Virus record (IMG/VR): IMGVR_UViG_2778261172_000006
Span: 1 to 37,263 of that record
DNA length: 37,263 bases
Direction: 5' to 3' (one strand)
Source of the DNA: a virus
Taxonomy: Duplodnaviria > Heunggongvirae > Uroviricota > Caudoviricetes
Translations under genes and position numbers: made by a program
The notes under the pieces: model-generated
The model's input: only the letters and a program-made list of their open reading frames with translations
What the model was told of the DNA's origin: nothing
Database searches by the model: none
Shown here: positions 6,186 through 13,434 of the stretch, piece after piece
How positions within the stretch are numbered: position 1 is the stretch's first letter
Layout of the letters: every line of letters begins with the position of its first letter

Positions 6186-9008
6186 ATGACGACAGAGTAC
6201 ATCAGGGACTGGCAACAACCGCGCCACGCAGTAGGGCGTGAAGGAACGGGGATCCCCACTCCTGAATCCGCGCTTTCCTCCTGGCTGGATGCCTACCGGG
6301 CAGAGAACGAGCGCCACCAGGAAAAGGCTGATGCGGCGTTCTCCGCCACGCCACTGGGCAACCTGATTAATAAAAGCCTGGACGCACAGGAAAAACAGGA
6401 CAAAACCATCACGCTGGCAGGAGAAGCCAGAAGACAGACACGCGGCACGGTGGATGAAGCCATGGCCTCGCTGCGCCTGCTGCCGTCCTATCTGCGCGAT
6501 CCGCTTATTCGCCACCTCTCCTTCCTGCGCAAAAAACAGGAAGCCGATCTCCGGAAAGAAAAAAATGCCTGGCAGGCAGAAAACTATGCACGCGGAACCC
6601 TGCGCAAGATATTCGTTCGCATTAACCGTGCCGACAGTCGCTGGCTGACACCGGGTTATCGCTCCCTCGCCGGACGTGAGCGTCTGGATGATTTGCTTTA
6701 CCTGCCGCAGCTCAATAAACACCAGATACAGACACTGGCCACCATGACAGCGGCAATGTTCAGCAGCACCTTCGAAACACTCTGTGATGGTTTCGGTGCC
6801 AAAGATGGCGAGCTGACCATGGAGGTGGCACTGAAGGCGTATCAGATGCTGGCCCGCATGGCGTTACACCTGCACACCGTGCCGCCGCATTACGAAGCAC
6901 TGACAACAGACAAAGACCGGAGGAACGAACCGGACACGGAGCTGCTGCCGGGCGCAATCCTTCGTCTGACCTGTGCGGAATGGTGGAAACGCAAACTGTG
7001 GCTGTTACGTTGCGAGTGGCGGGAAGAACAACTCCGTGCCGCCTGTCTGGTTTCCAGAAAAACATCGCCCTATCTGAGCCAGGACGCGTTAAGCGAGTTT
7101 CGCGCACAGCGCGAGAAAACACGCGATTTTCTGAAAAGTTTCATGCTGGAAAACGAAGACGGGTTCACGATTGATCTCGAGACAGTGTATTACGCGGGAG
7201 TAAGTAACCCGGTTCACCGTAAGGCAGAAATGATGGCCACCATGAAGGGGCTGGAACTTCTGGCCGAAGCCCGTGGCGACAAAGCGGTGTTTCTGACTGT
7301 CACCTGCCCGTCAAAATACCACGCCACAACGGAGAACGGTCATCCGAACCCCAAATGGAACGGGGCCACCATGCGCGACTCCAGCGATTACCTGGTTAAC
7401 ACGTTTTTTGCGGCGGTCCGCAAAAAACTGAACCGCGACGGTCTTCGCTGGTATGGCATCCGCACGGTGGAGCCTCACCATGACGGCACCGTGCACTGGC
7501 ATATGATGGTCTTTGCTCATCCGGAAGAAATCGACAGCATCGTGGCCATCACCCGCGATATTGCCATTCAGGAAGACCGCCACGAGCTGGGTGATGATAT
7601 TACCCCACGCTTTAAGGTGGAGTATGTCGACGGCTCAAAAGGCACACCAACCAGCTACATCGCCACCTACATCGGAAAGAACCTGGACAGCCGCGCCGTG
7701 GATGGCATCGACCCGAAAACGGGCAAGCCACGCGTTGACCACGAAACAGGAAAATCAATGACCGAGAGCGTGGAACGCGCCATCGGCTGGGCGCGCCTTC
7801 ACCGGGTCCGCCAGTTCCAGTTCTTTGGCATTCCCTCCCGTCAGGTGTGGCGTGAACTCCGCCGCCTTGCCAGCCAGATGGCACGCAACCCGGAAGGCCC
7901 GCAACGGCTGAAGAATGACGCAATGGATGCGGTACTCGCTGCCGCCGATGCCGGGTGTTTTGCCTCCTACATTGAAAAACAGGGCGGCGTACTTGTTCCA
8001 CGCAAAGACTACCTGATTCGCACCGCCTACGACCTCGCAGATGAGCCGAACGATTACGGCGAACAGAGCGTACAGATTTACGGGATCTGGTCACCACTCA
8101 TCGGGGAATCCTCCCGTGTGTGCACGCACCCGGATAACTGGAAGCTGGTAAGACGTAAACCGGAAGCGGAAGACAACACCCGCGAAAATGGTTTTGACCT
8201 TCAGGGCGGCCCTGCCGCCCCTTGGACTCGTGGCAATAACTGTCCCCGTGTACAGGAAACGGACAACAACGGGACAGAACAGCCGGAAGAACGGCCAGCA
8301 CCGTGGCCGCAGCTTCCTGACGGCATTGAAGTGAACGAATGGATGCGCTCACTGAAACGGCACGAACGCCGGGCGCTGATGCGTTCGCTTCGTGACAAAC
8401 AGGCAAAAAACAGCAGTGATGAAATGCAGAGCTGGACACAGAGCCGCAAACAGCAGCGGCCTTTGCCTGATAACCACGAATTACTCGCTAGAGAATGGCG
8501 GGAGTCTGCTGAATCTCTCGGCCTGCATATCGGTGAACAACAAATGCAGCACCTGTTACGGGGCGGCAGTCTGTACGTTGACGGCAGCATCATTGCACCG
8601 CAGGGATTTGAAATTGTACGCAAACCGGATACCCGCCCGGACAGCCGAATCACGCAGCTCTGGCAACGCCTGAGCCGTAATCACGGCGTAAGCAGCACGG
8701 AGATCCGCCATAACCCGGTCGCCAGCTATCTGGAACAGCTGGGGGCATCAGACCCTGAAGCCGCCGCACGCCTGGCATCCACACTTCAGCAGGACCAGAA
8801 CACCATGAAAACACCCGTTACCGTGCTTTCTGACATGCTGCGCGCCATCCGCGACGCAGAGCACGCACAGAGAATCAGTGAAACCACTGAACGCGCCCGC
8901 CGCAAAGCAGACCTGCTGCGGGGTGGCCTGACCAGTGGAAACAAAAAACAGACAGAAACGGGATTCACAAATCCCGTAAATGAGCAAAAAACGCGCCGCG
9001 ATATATGA
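6186..9008 (+). CDS. A: replication initiation endonuclease, P2 gpA family, with long C-terminal extension
   Basis: 940-aa ORF; HxH-type motif (TVHWHMMVF) and P2 A-like core around residues 330-600; position between early genes and the cargo region. Confidence 0.88.
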   Translation: MTTEYIRDWQQPRHAVGREGTGIPTPESALSSWLDAYRAENERHQEKADAAFSATPLGNLINKSLDAQEKQDKTITLAGEARRQTRGTVDEAMASLRLLPSYLRDPLIRHLSFLRKKQEADLRKEKNAWQAENYARGTLRKIFVRINRADSRWLTPGYRSLAGRERLDDLLYLPQLNKHQIQTLATMTAAMFSSTFETLCDGFGAKDGELTMEVALKAYQMLARMALHLHTVPPHYEALTTDKDRRNEPDTELLPGAILRLTCAEWWKRKLWLLRCEWREEQLRAACLVSRKTSPYLSQDALSEFRAQREKTRDFLKSFMLENEDGFTIDLETVYYAGVSNPVHRKAEMMATMKGLELLAEARGDKAVFLTVTCPSKYHATTENGHPNPKWNGATMRDSSDYLVNTFFAAVRKKLNRDGLRWYGIRTVEPHHDGTVHWHMMVFAHPEEIDSIVAITRDIAIQEDRHELGDDITPRFKVEYVDGSKGTPTSYIATYIGKNLDSRAVDGIDPKTGKPRVDHETGKSMTESVERAIGWARLHRVRQFQFFGIPSRQVWRELRRLASQMARNPEGPQRLKNDAMDAVLAAADAGCFASYIEKQGGVLVPRKDYLIRTAYDLADEPNDYGEQSVQIYGIWSPLIGESSRVCTHPDNWKLVRRKPEAEDNTRENGFDLQGGPAAPWTRGNNCPRVQETDNNGTEQPEERPAPWPQLPDGIEVNEWMRSLKRHERRALMRSLRDKQAKNSSDEMQSWTQSRKQQRPLPDNHELLAREWRESAESLGLHIGEQQMQHLLRGGSLYVDGSIIAPQGFEIVRKPDTRPDSRITQLWQRLSRNHGVSSTEIRHNPVASYLEQLGASDPEAAARLASTLQQDQNTMKTPVTVLSDMLRAIRDAEHAQRISETTERARRKADLLRGGLTSGNKKQTETGFTNPVNEQKTRRDI
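8956..8980. repeat. 25-bp palindromic element, copy 1 (AAACGGGATT-CACA-AATCCCGTAAA)
   Basis: 8-bp inverted repeat ACGGGATT/AATCCCGT with 4-nt spacer, inside the 3' end of A. Confidence 0.7.
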
Positions 9009-9028
9009 AGCGCGCACAAAACAGGCAA

Positions 9029-9053
9029 AAACGGGATTTCAGAATCCCGTAAA
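9029..9053. repeat. 25-bp palindromic element, copy 2 (AAACGGGATT-TCAG-AATCCCGTAAA)
   Basis: Near-identical copy 73 bp downstream of copy 1, 32 bp upstream of the parM-like start. Confidence 0.7.
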
Positions 9054-9084
9054 CGATTAATTAATCAACATAAGGAAAAGCGAC

Positions 9085-10044
9085 ATGAAAATTTGTATCG
9101 ACGACGGCTCCACCAACATCAAGCTGGCATGGACTGAGAACGGCGAACGCCGCAACGCCATCAGCCCGAACAGCTTCAAGTCGGAATGGTCTGCGCCGTT
9201 CGGTGGCACGCAGCCCGCGAACTACATGCTTGATGGCGTGCGCTATGGTTTTGATCCGGTCAGCGATCGCTTTGTCCAGACGACCGACACGCAATACCAG
9301 TACAGCGATGTGAATGTCATTGCCATTCATCACGCGCTGGTCAAATCAGGCATCACGCCACAGGAGGTGGATGTGGTTGTCACCCTGCCACTGAGCGAGT
9401 ATTTCGACACAAACGCACAGCCGGACATGGCCAACATCAACCGCAAAAAAGCGAACGTTATGCGCCCGGTGGAGTACCAGAACGGCGAAGCATTCACTAT
9501 CCGTAACGTGCGGGTTATGCCTGAATCCATTCCGGCTGGCTTTAAGGCACTGGCTGACATGAGTCCGTTTGAATCCCTGCTGATTGTGGATTTAGGCGGA
9601 ACCACGCTGGATGTGGCAAAGGTTCAGGGGCAACTGGCAGGTATCAGCCAGGTGTTTTGCGATCCACACGTAGGCGTTTCCCTGATGGTCGATGCCGTGC
9701 TGTCGGTGATGGCCGCTAACGGTATGCGTACCAGTCACCACATCGCCAATACCATTATCGAACATCGCCATGATGAAGCCTGGTTGCGCCAACACATCCA
9801 CAATGACGCGCATTACGCCAGCCTGATGGCGGTTATTCGTGAAAAGGAAGAAACACTGAAACAACGCGTGATCCGCGCGCTGGCGGGTTTTTCGGGTTAC
9901 GGACGGGTGATGGTTGTCGGTGGCGGGGCGGAGATTGTGGCACCCGCTATCCGCGAAGCCTGCGGAGTTAATGCGACTTTCATCGCGGACGGGGTGCCAC
10001 AGTTTGCTCTGGTTAATGGGCTGTACGCAATGGACAAGGAGTAA
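9085..10044 (+). CDS. parM: ParM/StbA-like actin-type segregation ATPase
   Basis: 319 aa; N-terminus MKICIDDGSTNIKLAW, SDVNVIAIHHAL, VMPESIPAG, DLGGTTLD and VVGGGAE match remembered plasmid R1 ParM motifs along the whole length. Confidence 0.85.
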   Translation: MKICIDDGSTNIKLAWTENGERRNAISPNSFKSEWSAPFGGTQPANYMLDGVRYGFDPVSDRFVQTTDTQYQYSDVNVIAIHHALVKSGITPQEVDVVVTLPLSEYFDTNAQPDMANINRKKANVMRPVEYQNGEAFTIRNVRVMPESIPAGFKALADMSPFESLLIVDLGGTTLDVAKVQGQLAGISQVFCDPHVGVSLMVDAVLSVMAANGMRTSHHIANTIIEHRHDEAWLRQHIHNDAHYASLMAVIREKEETLKQRVIRALAGFSGYGRVMVVGGGAEIVAPAIREACGVNATFIADGVPQFALVNGLYAMDKE

Positions 10045-10048
10045 ACCA

Positions 10049-10363
10049 ATGACGACACCAACCAGACGGATAAGTTTCTATCTGAAGCCCGCCGCCGTCA
10101 ATAGTGAACGGAAGGCGTGTAATTACCTCGACAGCCTGCCAGCCTCTGAACGCAGCCGCGCGCAACGCGCGGCCTTTCTGGCCGGGCTGGCACTCATAAA
10201 ACGCGATCCTGCATTTGCCTATTGGTTGGCCGAATGGCCGGAAGAAGGAGCTGCGCCAGCAAAGAATAATATTCAGAGTAAATATGCCAGCACACCTGCC
10301 ACCGGAAGCAATCACAGCACTAGCGAGATAAGAAAGAACATTCAGTCATTTTTCCCGGAGTGA
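10049..10363 (+). CDS. parR: ParR/StbB-like centromere-binding adaptor
   Basis: ATG at 10049 with AAGGAG RBS; RRISFYLKP...CNYLDSLPASERSRAQRAAFLAGLAL parallels R1 ParR (RRTIAFKLNP...CDTLDSIPQGERSRLNRAALTAGLAL). Confidence 0.75.
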   Translation: MTTPTRRISFYLKPAAVNSERKACNYLDSLPASERSRAQRAAFLAGLALIKRDPAFAYWLAEWPEEGAAPAKNNIQSKYASTPATGSNHSTSEIRKNIQSFFPE

Positions 10364-10382
10364 AAACAGGAGAGGTGCATCT

Positions 10383-10814
10383 ATGGCAACTATTCCCAAA
10401 AAATGGTTACAACGCAAAATCGCAGACCTTGAATCGTGTCGTGAAGACATCCCATTTGGCCTTGATGAAAACGATCACAATATGTTAATCGCACTGAAAA
10501 TCGCACTCACATCGCTGGAAGCGAAACCTGTTGCATGGACTGATGATGAGGAACTGCGTGATGTCAAGCAGTATGGTTTCGGTGAGATATTTCAGTGTCC
10601 GCCAGATAAATACGCGGATCCGCGCCGTGTTATCCCTATGTATCAAGAGCCGCCAGCGCCAGCAGTACCAGATGGGCTGGTTAGAGCGGTGCGTTTCTAT
10701 GAACAGGTTAAGCGTGAAAATCCGCCAGCCGAAACCGGAGCATGGAAAGACGCTGTTGACTGGGTGCTCAAAGAGGCCTGCCAAGTTGTAAACACTGGCA
10801 TCAAAGGAGACTGA
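10383..10814 (+). CDS. hypothetical protein (143 aa)
   Basis: ATG with GGAGAGG RBS; contains motif IALKIALTSLEAKPVAW. Confidence 0.55.
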   Translation: MATIPKKWLQRKIADLESCREDIPFGLDENDHNMLIALKIALTSLEAKPVAWTDDEELRDVKQYGFGEIFQCPPDKYADPRRVIPMYQEPPAPAVPDGLVRAVRFYEQVKRENPPAETGAWKDAVDWVLKEACQVVNTGIKGD

Positions 10815-10815
10815 T

Positions 10816-11025
10816 ATGGCTATTGCCGCAAGTTACACCATGCATCTCTATTGTGATTGCCTCCAGTGTACAGATGGCAAATATAAGTCGCCAGACTTCG
10901 GTGAGTATATAGGTACGTCATGGGCTGGCTGTGCAAAAGAGGCGCGCAAGGATGGCTGGCGAATAAGCAAAGACAAAACGCGTGCTTTTGCGCCCGGGCA
11001 TAAAGTTTTGAGGATTAACAAATGA
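10816..11025 (+). CDS. hypothetical small Cys-rich protein (69 aa)
   Basis: ATG 1 nt after upstream stop; CDCLQC...C pattern. Confidence 0.5.
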   Translation: MAIAASYTMHLYCDCLQCTDGKYKSPDFGEYIGTSWAGCAKEARKDGWRISKDKTRAFAPGHKVLRINK

Positions 11026-11282
11026 CCACTTTAACCGACAAAGAACTGATTAAAGAAATCAAAGAGCGCATAGGCAGCCTAGACGTGAGAGACAATATTG
11101 AACGCCGTGCTTATGAAATTGCTCTGGTATCGCTGGAAGCAGAGCCAGTAGCATGGATGCATGTAAATAACGGCATCGGAATACCAGCAATAACAAGGAG
11201 TAAAGAGGTTGCAGAGAGTTGGTTATCAAAAGGCTGGTATGTCCAACCCTTACATCTAGCCCAGCCTGCATCAAAGCTATAG
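11022..11282 (+). CDS. hypothetical protein (86 aa)
   Basis: ATGA overlap with upstream ORF; shares motif IALVSLEAEPVAW with the 10383 ORF. Confidence 0.5.
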   Translation: MTTLTDKELIKEIKERIGSLDVRDNIERRAYEIALVSLEAEPVAWMHVNNGIGIPAITRSKEVAESWLSKGWYVQPLHLAQPASKL

Positions 11283-11292
11283 AAATGAGCCA

Positions 11293-11319
11293 AAACGCCC
11301 TCTTCCAGGGCGTTTATTT
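11293..11319 (+). terminator. intrinsic terminator after the parMR-linked operon
   Basis: 9-bp stem AAACGCCCT/AGGGCGTTT with 5-nt loop followed by TATTT. Confidence 0.6.
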
Positions 11320-11322
11320 CAA

Positions 11323-11349
11323 TGCACAATAGTGCACAAATTTGCACAA
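11323..11349. repeat. three TGCACAA heptamers phased at exactly 10 bp (11323, 11333, 11343)
   Basis: Direct reading; a fourth copy at 11415-11421 and a GGATCCGT direct repeat at 11393-11411 lie nearby. Confidence 0.7.
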
Positions 11350-11848
11350 TTTTTTTGAACGACTTTTTGCCCTTCCGGCCCGCGGGGCGACTGGATCCGT
11401 CAAGGATCCGTGCGTGCACAAAAAAACGCGCTTTTTCTGCGCGCAGGTGACGGGGGAACAGCCCGCGTTTCAGGGGGTAAATAGCATTCCCTGAACGATG
11501 TCGCAGCGACACAACAGAATGGCTGTCTTTCTCACGCTGAGCGTAAAAAAGACGTGAGGGCTTTTGATTTGATGGGGTGGCAGATAAGGCCGTCAAAATC
11601 GCACTGAGGCGGCGAGAACATGCAGTCAGCGCAGTGGGATTGCGTAAGAGTCTGACCGTCGATGATGGAAATAAGCAGGAAAGCGTCGTGAAATTATCTG
11701 ACTGATACAGGAGCTGGAGAGTCGGGGCATAAATTTTTTATGCCCCGGCGAAGCAGCAGACAAGCGAAGCGCGTCAGCGATACGGCACCTTGCCGACCAT
11801 ACTTCATAAGTGCAAAATACGAGCAAAGAAATCAATGGAGGCTGTCTT

Positions 11849-12373
11849 ATGGTCATTAATTACAAGCAGTTAAGAGAAAAACGGGAGCAGGTAAAGGAGA
11901 GCTTTCGCCGCAATGAAGATCTGACCCCGCTTGTACGCCTTGCCCAGGGCATTGTTGACGCTTATGAAATCTCGCTGGAGCTGCCATCACAGACCTGGAC
12001 AGATAGCGACGGTAATCGCCAGCATTACATTTCATGCGGACTGGAAGCAGCCGAAGGATTTCGCAGAATGCCTTTATCCCAGATCCCTGCCGCAACCCCC
12101 AAAGCAAGAGGCAGCAATGATGAGCGAAAACTGACTTTCAGCATTGAGACAGTGGTTGACGACACACCTGGCGAAGTCGCGTTCGTGCACACTCCTGTTT
12201 CGATCGCAATGTATAACGATGAAATACAGGTTCGCGTTAATAATAATATCGTGCCACTTAAAGAAGGTAATTCACCCTACACCACCGTTTGTGAAGCCAT
12301 TCAATATTACGTTCTCTCTGAAATTGATAATCTCAAGCCTGACGGCACCCAGAAAATGGTTCAACTCTGGTAA
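11849..12373 (+). CDS. hypothetical protein (174 aa) between cos-proximal region and portal gene
   Basis: ATG at 11849 with GGAGG 8 nt upstream; convergent with Q and ending in a strong hairpin terminator. Confidence 0.55.
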   Translation: MVINYKQLREKREQVKESFRRNEDLTPLVRLAQGIVDAYEISLELPSQTWTDSDGNRQHYISCGLEAAEGFRRMPLSQIPAATPKARGSNDERKLTFSIETVVDDTPGEVAFVHTPVSIAMYNDEIQVRVNNNIVPLKEGNSPYTTVCEAIQYYVLSEIDNLKPDGTQKMVQLW

Positions 12374-12379
12374 AAAGGA

Positions 12380-12404
12380 CAGCCCCATCACGGGGCTGTT
12401 TTTT
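12380..12404. terminator. bidirectional intrinsic terminator between the 174-aa ORF and Q
   Basis: CAGCCCC-ATCA-CGGGGCTG hairpin flanked by AAAAA upstream and TTTTTT downstream. Confidence 0.65.
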
Positions 12405-13434
12405 CATCAAGAAGAGCATAAGAGTTAAAACGGATCACCTCTTCGCCAAGCCAGTCATTGATATGCTTCATGGCCTCCATGACGGGCATCAGCTCGTTAA
12501 TTGCGTAAACCCGCGCGGCCTTCTCCACATCACCAAACGCACTTTTTTCACCCGGCATCGCCCCCATCAGTTGCGGCGGAACGCGGTGCGCAGCCAGCAC
12601 GTCATCACGGGATGCCGCCTTAACATTCATGAACTCATCTTTTGCGGTGATCTGCTGGAACGGCAAAATTTGCACACCTTCTTTGCCCCCGTTGGGCGCA
12701 TGAATGAGCACGTTTTTAAACGCACCACCACCACGTGCACCCTGTAACGTTTCTTTCAGGGAGTCCATGCTTTCGCGGTTTACCTGTGCTGCACCGATGT
12801 AGATGATGCACCCGGCGTGGGATCCGTTGTCGTAATACAGTTTTCTGAACATGTCCGCCGAATGAGACAGGCTGGCCGAGAGTAATGCGCCGAGATATTC
12901 CGGCATGCCGTAGATTTCCTGGTTAATATCCGGATTCATCAGGTGGCACACTTTGCCAGGGCGAAACTGGAACGCGTCCTTGCCATCCTGCACATACCAC
13001 CATGATTCAAGATCGCTTCCGCGTCGCATGTATTTCGCCAGTGCGTGCCGTAATTTAAGCGGTTCGCCGAGCATATTGCTTCGAAGCTCAAGGAATGCGT
13101 TACCGAACACAAACCAGTCCAGCGCCAGCGCCGAGAAATCCTGCCGGGAAAGCAGCGGGTGCGGGATGTAGCAACCGAGTAATACATTGCGCTTAAAGTA
13201 AAGCGCAGACTGATGCCAGGACGTTTGCCGGGCAGCTCTCGCCAGACCGTACCAGTCCACCGGGGTTTCATACCACCGCCCGTTATCAGCACAGTACATA
13301 TTGTCCAGCAGGTCATGCCCGGTCAGGCGATAAGGACCATCAAATGTGAATGCACTGAGCGATGATTCTTTCCTGAGCGCATCAGCGAGATCAATGCGTG
13401 AACTCATGCGCACTTTTTTATTTTTTCTGCTCAT
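12388..13434 (-). CDS. Q: portal protein (P2 gpQ family)
   Basis: 348-aa ORF; start overlaps P stop on the minus strand; P2 Q-like sequence and position next to terminase. Confidence 0.9.
   Translation of the reverse strand: MSRKNKKVRMSSRIDLADALRKESSLSAFTFDGPYRLTGHDLLDNMYCADNGRWYETPVDWYGLARAARQTSWHQSALYFKRNVLLGCYIPHPLLSRQDFSALALDWFVFGNAFLELRSNMLGEPLKLRHALAKYMRRGSDLESWWYVQDGKDAFQFRPGKVCHLMNPDINQEIYGMPEYLGALLSASLSHSADMFRKLYYDNGSHAGCIIYIGAAQVNRESMDSLKETLQGARGGGAFKNVLIHAPNGGKEGVQILPFQQITAKDEFMNVKAASRDDVLAAHRVPPQLMGAMPGEKSAFGDVEKAARVYAINELMPVMEAMKHINDWLGEEVIRFNSYALLDEKTAP

Follow-up and report, generated by a model that had tools for sequence, protein, structure and literature searches.

The 37,263-nucleotide (nt) window analyzed here (IMG/VR record IMGVR_UViG_2778261172_000006) carries three small open reading frames (ORFs), ORF1–3, directly behind the partition genes parM and parR. 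Megablast alignments with P88, PhiR44_2, and other Xuanwuvirus phages, in which the flanks are conserved and the center is variable, identify the window as a P88-like Escherichia coli prophage (genus Xuanwuvirus, Peduoviridae, P2 family). Coordinates of all features are collected in Table 1. The original prediction had described three tightly coupled, co-oriented ORFs of 143, 69, and 86 amino acids (aa), and we find exactly these. The parR stop codon is followed by 19 nt containing AGGAGAGG and then by the ATG of ORF1. ORF1 and ORF2 are separated by a single nucleotide (TGAtATG), with the sequence AAAGGAG lying within the 3′ end of ORF1, and ORF2 overlaps ORF3 by 4 nt (ATGA).

The strong terminator predicted behind the third ORF corresponds to a stable hairpin that begins 12 nt past the ORF3 stop codon (−18.4 kcal/mol, z = −4.3; 0 of 200 shuffled sequences equally stable). 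The interrupted U-tract (UUUAUUU) of this hairpin kept it off the list of a consensus terminator scan. The promoter scan returned no promoter-like site from parM to the hairpin. With no space left for a promoter behind parR, co-transcription of ORF1–3 with parMR is plausible and the simplest reading. The ratios of nonsynonymous to synonymous substitution rates (dN/dS) relative to homologs are 0.13–0.27 for ORF1 (0.02–0.24 for its tail module), 0.21 for ORF2, and 0.17 for ORF3, indicating that purifying selection acts on all three.

Table 1. Features of the ORF1–3 locus and its surroundings, in window positions
Feature	Position	Strand	Remarks
ORF1, 143 aa	10383-10814	+	
ORF1 head, aa 1-52, two-helix hairpin ending in ALTSLEAKPVAW	10383-10538	+	AlphaFold 2 (AF2) helices 6-22, 29-46; PHROG 660/60/5117/3323
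ORF1 middle, aa 53-96, ending in P-rich linker PMYQEPPAPAVP	10539-10670	+	Alternative middles in the same alignment columns
ORF1 tail, aa 97-143, DGLVRAVRFYEQVKRENPPAETGAWKDAVDWVLKEAC...GIKGD	10671-10814	+	AF2 helices 97-112, 119-140
Conserved gene-boundary sequence	10798-10820	+	Encodes ...GIKGD-stop, AAAGGAG Shine-Dalgarno, next ATG
ORF2, 69 aa	10816-11025	+	Small protein, probable zinc site C13, C15, C18, H62
ORF3, 86 aa	11022-11282	+	
ORF3 head, aa 1-45, ending in ALVSLEAEPVAW	11022-11156	+	YfdT-type head; 97% nt identity to 683R2 up to 11146
ORF3 middle (MHVNNGIGIPAITRSKEVAESWLSKGWYVQPLH)	11157-11255	+	Alignment with DUF551 proteins P0195, P0196
ORF3 last 8 codons and stop (LAQPASKL*)	11256-11282	+	Same role as P88 gp20 tail; right junction of imported block
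Stem-loop, probable terminator of the parM–ORF3 transcript	11294-11320	+	RNA fold
parM, 319 aa, first gene of presumed operon	9085-10044	+	Pfam StbA_N 1.8e-82, ParM C-terminal domain 3.9e-68
parR, 104 aa, divergent C-terminal half	10049-10363	+	Pfam Plasmid_stab_B 2.6e-26
gpA-type replication endonuclease, 940 aa	6186-9008		
Two 42-nt direct repeats, 81% identical, 73 nt apart	8942-8983, 9015-9056		Each with 20-nt palindrome ACGGGATT....AATCCCGT
187-aa ORF	11810-12373	+	ATG at 11849 is the probable start; phrog_5091, E = 1e-66

ORF1 and ORF3 share an N-terminal module. In a BLASTP comparison, 15 of 27 positions are identical (56%, E = 9e-6), which places the predicted common motif ALxSLEA-x-PVAW of the two helical N termini above chance. 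Both N termini match the same PHROG profiles (phrog_60, 660, 5117, and 3323; E from 3e-4 to 1.5e-25), and ORF1 and ORF3 are members of this head–middle–tail family. The best matches are phrog_660 for ORF1 (E = 1.2e-44) and phrog_5117 for ORF3 (E = 1.5e-25), with cross-matches between both. Across alignments of 56 relatives of ORF1 and 21 of ORF3, the motif hardly varies from the form AL(T/V)SLEA(K/E)PVAW, and its flanks fall into several unrelated alleles, with alternative heads, middles, and tails standing in register. The motif codons differ synonymously between ORF1 and ORF3 and are identical only in tcgctggaagc and gcatgg, which argues that the constraint acts at the protein level and not solely at that of the DNA. 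The duplicated module suggested by the original prediction did not arise by local tandem duplication, since each head has nearer relatives elsewhere. The likeness is therefore a family trait, and the two heads are different alleles of a widely shuffled module.

This head module comprises ∼45 residues in two helices, carries the motif at its end, and is combined with many middles and tails in over 1,000 protein clusters of enterobacterial prophages. Homologous clusters number 1,406 for ORF1, 46 for ORF2, and 519 for ORF3, and some of them are named ead/Ea22-like or DUF551. The profile and structure-based searches that had been suggested for the three ORFs returned PHROG families (660, 926, and 5117), but no family in Pfam (E ≤ 1 for ORF1 and ORF3), NCBIfam, or the defense collection PADLOC (E ≤ 1) and no known fold. 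A sequence search of the PDB with the ORF1 and ORF2 profiles gave either nothing or spurious matches to fibronectin type II (fn2) domains.

We compared the proteins by BLASTP with 286 relatives and recorded the points at which homology stops while both proteins continue. Such internal ends pile up at residue 52 of ORF1 (32 ends), which is the tryptophan of PVAW, at residues 45–47 of ORF3 (76 ends), and at residues 95–101 of ORF1 (53 ends), within the linker PPAPAVPDG. The clustering of ends at PVAW and the linker indicates that the proteins are built of independently exchanged parts. At the level of sequence, ORF1 and ORF3 are shown to follow one design of a two-helix head, PVAW, a middle, a proline-rich PLY..PP.P linker, and an optional tail.

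In agreement with this design, the AlphaFold model of ORF1 (predicted local distance difference test score, pLDDT, 74) consists of a helical hairpin (residues 6–46), a small α/β unit (residues 51–86), and a second helical hairpin (residues 97–140). The ORF1 head recurs with other tails (P0028, P0029, and P0039), and the tail module is present twice in one protein (P0010). The tail (DGLVRAVRFYEQVKRENPP.ETGAWKDAVDWVLKEAC...GIKGD) shows 92% nt identity to the tail of gp20 from P88, and also aligns with the C termini of lambdoid proteins annotated as Ea22- or ead-like, at 84% nt identity in ev017 and 89% in 606R7. Some ORF1-type proteins (P0039 and P0062) end in DUF551, whereas ORF1 itself has a different tail. 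With YfdT of E. coli K-12, ORF1 shares only the motif (E = 0.067).

The head of ORF3, in contrast, is of the YfdT type: 36 of its first 42 residues are identical to residues 1–42 of YfdT (86%, E = 2e-22). The homology stops at SLE(A/V)EP, and beyond the head the two proteins are unrelated. ORF3 is 83–85% identical to the first ∼82 residues of ∼150-aa DUF551 proteins (P0195–P0197), which run on through the linker into the DUF551 domain, whereas ORF3 stops at PLHLAQPASKL. The domain itself (PF04448; ...GWISCSERMP...HWMPLPEPP) gave no Pfam match in ORF1 or ORF3. P88 homology resumes at 11256, which identifies the ORF3 tail as the gp20 tail, that is, as codons of the P88 backbone; gp20 of P88 ends in ...GIKGDLAQPASKL. 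Two-module forms of 84–98 aa like ORF3 are common, for instance P0167 on 86 contigs and an 84-aa homolog in ev017 (dN/dS 0.17), so the ORF3 type recurs in nature and is not evidently a dead remnant. Many NCBI records of ORF3 relatives (P0193, P0202, P0203, P0206, and P0219–P0221) read “valyl-tRNA synthetase.” An assignment of ORF3 to this enzyme was rejected, as the underlying NCBIfam match is spurious (14 bits, E = 0.01, against a cutoff of 704 bits); weak matches of this kind explain the propagated misannotation.

ORF2 is a full-length match to PHROG 926 (E = 1.5e-36 over 69 of 69 positions). It is indeed cysteine-rich, as predicted, with four cysteines in 69 residues, and Cys-13, Cys-15, Cys-18, and His-62 are invariant among the closer homologs. 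A profile search of 1.8 billion representatives recovered 394 relatives, nearly all of 60–90 aa and with the pattern LYCD...GW...(C/A)P.(H/C). Across 123 family members, Cys-13 is retained in 122 and Cys-18 in 98 (with a histidine in five more), and position 62 is a histidine in 80 and a cysteine in 38 (118 in total). Exactly one of positions 15 and 59 is a cysteine in 117 of the 123 (Fisher 2e-27, uncorrected for phylogeny). Four ligands that persist through such a swap are the hallmark of a structural site for a metal, most probably zinc, and this pattern suggests that ORF2 probably binds zinc through a site of the Cys-13/Cys-15/Cys-18/His-62 type. No Pfam model, solved relative, or known fold was found for the PHROG 926 family, and its distant members match no Pfam family. 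Classification as an Ea8.5-type zinc protein was rejected by sequence, as neither ORF2 nor the other two ORFs showed similarity to Ea8.5 of lambda. A 697-aa candidate relative (P0321) proved to be a false positive, a metalloproteinase with fn2 repeats.

Members of the ORF2 family also occur in virulent and actinobacterial phages. Distant homologs (56–60% identity; Kosakonia and Pantoea) reside in nin-type arrays of lambdoid prophages next to an Ea22-like coiled-coil gene, DUF551 genes, and genes with the head module. By these gene neighborhoods, the ORF1–3 families share accessory arrays in different genera. Mosaicism extends to the ORF2 family itself: one 134-aa protein (P0287) is a tandem double, another (P0154) has a YfdS-type head fused to the C-terminal half of ORF2, and in two more (P0158 and P0162) the N-terminal half is joined to a different cysteine-rich end.

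The site of ORF1–3 is the variable interval between gpA (replication) and gpQ (portal), the main variable and defense hotspot of P2 phages (PMC13586616). Its content differs among P88-like phages, in agreement with the earlier description of a phage cargo locus. The stretch from 9085 to 11330 is 100% identical to E. coli EcPF14. Compared with P88, parM shows 96% nt identity, and the 96% backbone identity to P88 and PhiR44_2 ends at 10194, within parR. Codons ∼50–104 of parR (10195–10363) encode a divergent sequence in which about one-third of the residues match P88 ParR and the terminal NI..(F/L)FPE is preserved; the variable region thus starts within parR, not behind it. Identity to the P88 and PhiR44_2 backbones reappears at 10669–10811, in the ORF1 tail, and resumes at 11256 (P88) or 11308 (PhiR44_2).

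The genes gp19 and gp20 of P88 occupy the same position after parR, and gp20 is related to the unit from ORF1 to ORF3 in its head and shares with it the tail, the final codons, and the terminator. However, P88 lacks ORF2 and ORF3, and its gp20 has no middle module. P88 and PhiR44_2 both combine a shorter gp20 with a ClpX-zinc-finger-like gp19 after parR. The gene after parR (P88 gp19, at 2925–3257 of L002; also 2925–3257 of L001) encodes 110 aa with CSFCNK...YICNECV and is annotated as carboxylate-amine ligase or ClpX; in the window it is replaced by the new ParR end and the head and middle of ORF1.

The remaining part of the cassette matches phages of other families. Positions 10798–11146, covering ORF2 and the ORF3 head, are 97.1% identical to the P22-like phage vB_EcoP-683R2. 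Here, an Ea22-type gene ending in GIRIKGE is followed by an ORF2 homolog encoding the identical protein and by a 263-aa “Ea22” that combines the ORF3 head with an end of the DUF551 type; this block lies between bet and xis and has the same 1-nt and ATGA junctions. Positions 10650–11036 are 89% identical to phage 606R7, in which ORF2 comes after a 119-aa protein that carries the ORF1 tail, and ev017 carries pieces in its exo–xis region in a different order. In the simplest history, a resident gp20-type gene would have recombined with a lambdoid or P22-like ea region. The left crossover would have fallen in the shared tail module or in the 23-nt sequence of gene end and Shine–Dalgarno motif, and the right one in the (Y/H)(I/L)AQP linker. 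ORF2 and the ORF3 head were imported as one block, and ORF3 ends at the linker, where it is fused in frame to the final codons of the gp20-type gene already resident there.

The 23-nt sequence at the ORF1/ORF2 border recurs, with 95.7% identity, at another, unrelated gene junction (L006, 4708–4730). Endings of the type GI(R)IKG(D/E)-stop are found on unrelated genes, namely ea22 of lambda, a 230-aa gene of 683R2, and the XF1762 gene of PhiR44_2. In genes ending this way, the next ATG follows within 1–2 nt, and the end codons double as the downstream Shine–Dalgarno sequence. These endings are consistent with the concept that gene junctions in lambdoid phages carry conserved boundary sequences. 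The GI(R)IKG(D/E) gene end resembles a boundary sequence that is portable.

Among 5,426 complete E. coli genomes, 1,726 carry pieces of the 967-bp cassette, on chromosomes and on plasmids, and 4 carry all of it. A contiguous parM–parR–ORF1 arrangement at ∼97.5% identity accounts for 36 of the 40 best matches and is present in many genomes, among them O104:H4 and 55989. In those prophages, ORF1 is followed by an unrelated 87-aa gene or by an XF1762-family gene and that 87-aa gene, and further P88-like phages carry still other genes after parR. Because ORF1 is kept while the later cargo differs, the ORF1-type gene is semi-conserved at this site, with ORF2 and ORF3 as rare imports. Co-occurrence with parMR, which had been proposed as a check, therefore holds for ORF1 in many genomes but not for the other two, and a status as core genes of the lineage applies in part to ORF1-type genes, which recur in several P88-like phages, and not to ORF2 and ORF3. 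We found no evidence that the three ORFs form a functional unit or act together with parMR. The XF1762-family gene (163 aa; L006 4233–4724 and L001 3571–4062) with the 87-aa gene constitutes an alternative cargo after ORF1-type genes, and the 87-aa gene stands alone in the prophage of the O104:H4 outbreak strain.

In identity and origin, ORF1–3 very probably represent a mosaic array of nonessential accessory genes of the lambda- and P22-like “ea” (exo–xis) and “nin” type that is seated in a P88-like slot. What the products do is a more tentative matter. By analogy with Ea22 and YfdS/YfdT, they could be small nonenzymatic binding proteins that tune host replication or the lysis–lysogeny decision and are not needed for phage growth, a possibility that we regard as rather doubtful. 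Expression would proceed from the parMR promoter with translational coupling of the ORFs, the predicted head would serve oligomerization or docking, and the variable modules would select the target. With identity, origin, and function taken as a whole, we consider this the best explanation and on balance a probable one.

Two known systems support the comparison. Ea22 is nonessential (PMC10695390), forms tetramers, and favors lysogeny in lambda and Phi24B (PMC7093339 and PMC10834534). Its variants combine a constant N-terminal part with swappable mosaic C-terminal domains (PMC10834534), a plan that resembles the mosaic design of ORF1 and ORF3. Ea22-type genes also share with the ORF1 locus the GI(R)IKG(D/E)-stop end and the organization in tightly coupled arrays, and the homologous blocks in ev017 and 683R2 do sit between exo/bet and xis. 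YfdT and YfdS, from the cryptic prophage CPS-53, are encoded like ORF3 in an array of small genes next to xis-type genes, and YfdS carries DUF551, as do the longer relatives of ORF3. Genetic evidence indicates that multicopy suppression of replication overinitiation, in which the overexpressed proteins damp DnaA-dependent initiation, requires YfdQ, YfdR, and one of YfdS and YfdT, and DnaA is bound by YfdR only (PMC4776307).

Several observations weigh against this assignment. Neither ORF1 nor ORF3 contains the N-terminal coiled-coil domain that defines the Ead/Ea22 family (PF13935), and none of ORF1–3 shows similarity to Ea22 of lambda (BLASTP E > 4), so that the analogy with Ea22 rests only on the shared tail module and the neighborhood. 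The prolysogenic effect was demonstrated for full-length Ea22 only. Moreover, Ea22 belongs to the exo–xis region that pL drives in lambdoid phages, whereas ORF1–3 lie behind parMR, between parR and the portal gene of a P2-family prophage. The analogy with YfdT is confined to the 42-aa head, and homologs of yfdQ and yfdR are not present at the ORF1–3 locus. Finally, we infer expression from the parMR promoter, the scan detected no promoter, and the confidence of the ORF1 model is only moderate.

Among other readings, a role in anti-defense or host takeover, with small early proteins that neutralize host immunity or nucleases and variable modules that track host targets, appears unlikely. Homologs do lie in the early operons of lambdoid and P22-like phages (pL ea and pR nin), near gam, bet, and exo, and small, highly mosaic, fast-shuffling proteins are a pattern typical of arms-race genes, to which the occurrence of the ORF2 family in virulent and actinobacterial phages may be added. 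However, the proteins resemble no known anti-defense protein or fold, the literature found on Ea22, DUF551, and YfdT reports no such activity, and the low dN/dS values are not those of diversifying genes. It is improbable that ORF1–3 instead serve the prophage in defense or superinfection exclusion. Such a function would suit the variable content of the main P2 defense hotspot, and a probably constitutive, ParR-autoregulated operon would permit expression in the lysogen from the parMR promoter. Yet no ORF has a match in PADLOC, the defense systems known from this hotspot were not found here, and Pfam revealed no enzymatic or sensor domain. In lambdoid phages, furthermore, the same genes lie in operons that are repressed in the lysogen (PMC7093339), and the cassette is not inherited as a unit, its pieces occurring independently in far more genomes than the 4 that hold it complete. 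Positive evidence was found for neither a defense nor an anti-defense role.

An equally improbable reading takes the motif mainly as a recombination linker at the DNA level, with a head devoid of its own function and ORF3 as a decaying, truncated DUF551 gene. The homology breakpoints coincide with the motif and the proline linker, motif DNA is detected by blastn across otherwise unrelated heads (84–86%), the 23-nt gene-end sequence recurs at unrelated junctions, and ORF3 has no DUF551 domain and closes with borrowed codons. These points are countered by the synonymous codon differences within the motif, by the confident AF2 prediction of the head as a helical hairpin, and by the abundance and conservation of the two-module forms described above. 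Least likely by far are accessory parts of the ParMR system, that is, regulators or adaptors of the ParM filament or of the ParR/parC complex. The ORFs directly follow parR in the same orientation with no promoter of their own in the scan, and many E. coli genomes have ORF1 directly adjoining this parMR allele; but P88-like phages with a 96% identical parM have different genes, or none of ORF1–3, after parR, all three families occur mostly in lambdoid and P22-like phages without parMR, and ORF2 and ORF3 accompany parMR in only four genomes.

The reading as a mosaic accessory array turns a candidate new three-gene system into a clear case of accessory-gene traffic between phage families without a common backbone, with crossovers located in a protein module that these families share, in a conserved sequence at the gene boundary, and in a proline linker. 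It also provides a lead into the abundant dark matter of prophages, as the head module of so many protein clusters includes that of K-12 YfdT, for which a genetic phenotype exists. A second lead is the family of 60–90-aa proteins whose four-ligand metal site undergoes ligand swapping. Unless a function emerges, current concepts are unaffected by either lead. In a far-reaching version, to which we give little chance, the AL.SLEA.PVAW head would be a common docking or oligomerization adaptor with which temperate enterobacterial phages of unrelated lineages (lambdoid, P22-like, and P2-like) swap small effector modules against a shared host hub, for example the replication-initiation machinery. 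ORF2 would then be a partner from a new class of zinc miniproteins, and placement behind parMR would turn expression limited to induction into expression in the lysogen and lead to a new host-control or exclusion phenotype.

Around ORF1–3, the prophage is ordered as integrase, cox-type early genes, gpA-type gene, parM, parR, ORF1–3, a conserved noncoding stretch, the 187-aa ORF, and the portal and terminase genes, which lie on the minus strand. The actin-like ParM ATPase, the ParR adaptor, and an upstream centromere candidate assign parMR itself, but not ORF1–3, to the type II partition systems. Of the two 42-nt palindromic repeats, the first falls within the 3′ end of the gpA-type gene and the second between this gene and parM, and both appeared terminator-like on the minus strand in the scan. 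These repeats are a candidate parC centromere and ParR operator. ParM and ParR had no match in PADLOC at E ≤ 1.

The 187-aa ORF directly adjoins the portal gene and has no match in Pfam, NCBIfam, or PADLOC. It is carried by PhiR44_2 and E. coli VTB97432v and is absent from P88, EcPF14, and the O104:H4 prophage, a distribution that marks it as a second presence/absence cargo gene of the hotspot. An Rfam scan of positions 8900–12500 returned no RNA family. The noncoding stretch between 11308 and 11777 is 96% conserved among P88-like phages and, by analogy with P2, might hold cos or regulatory sites. It encloses a 42-aa ORF (11577–11705) that is annotated as gp22 in P88.

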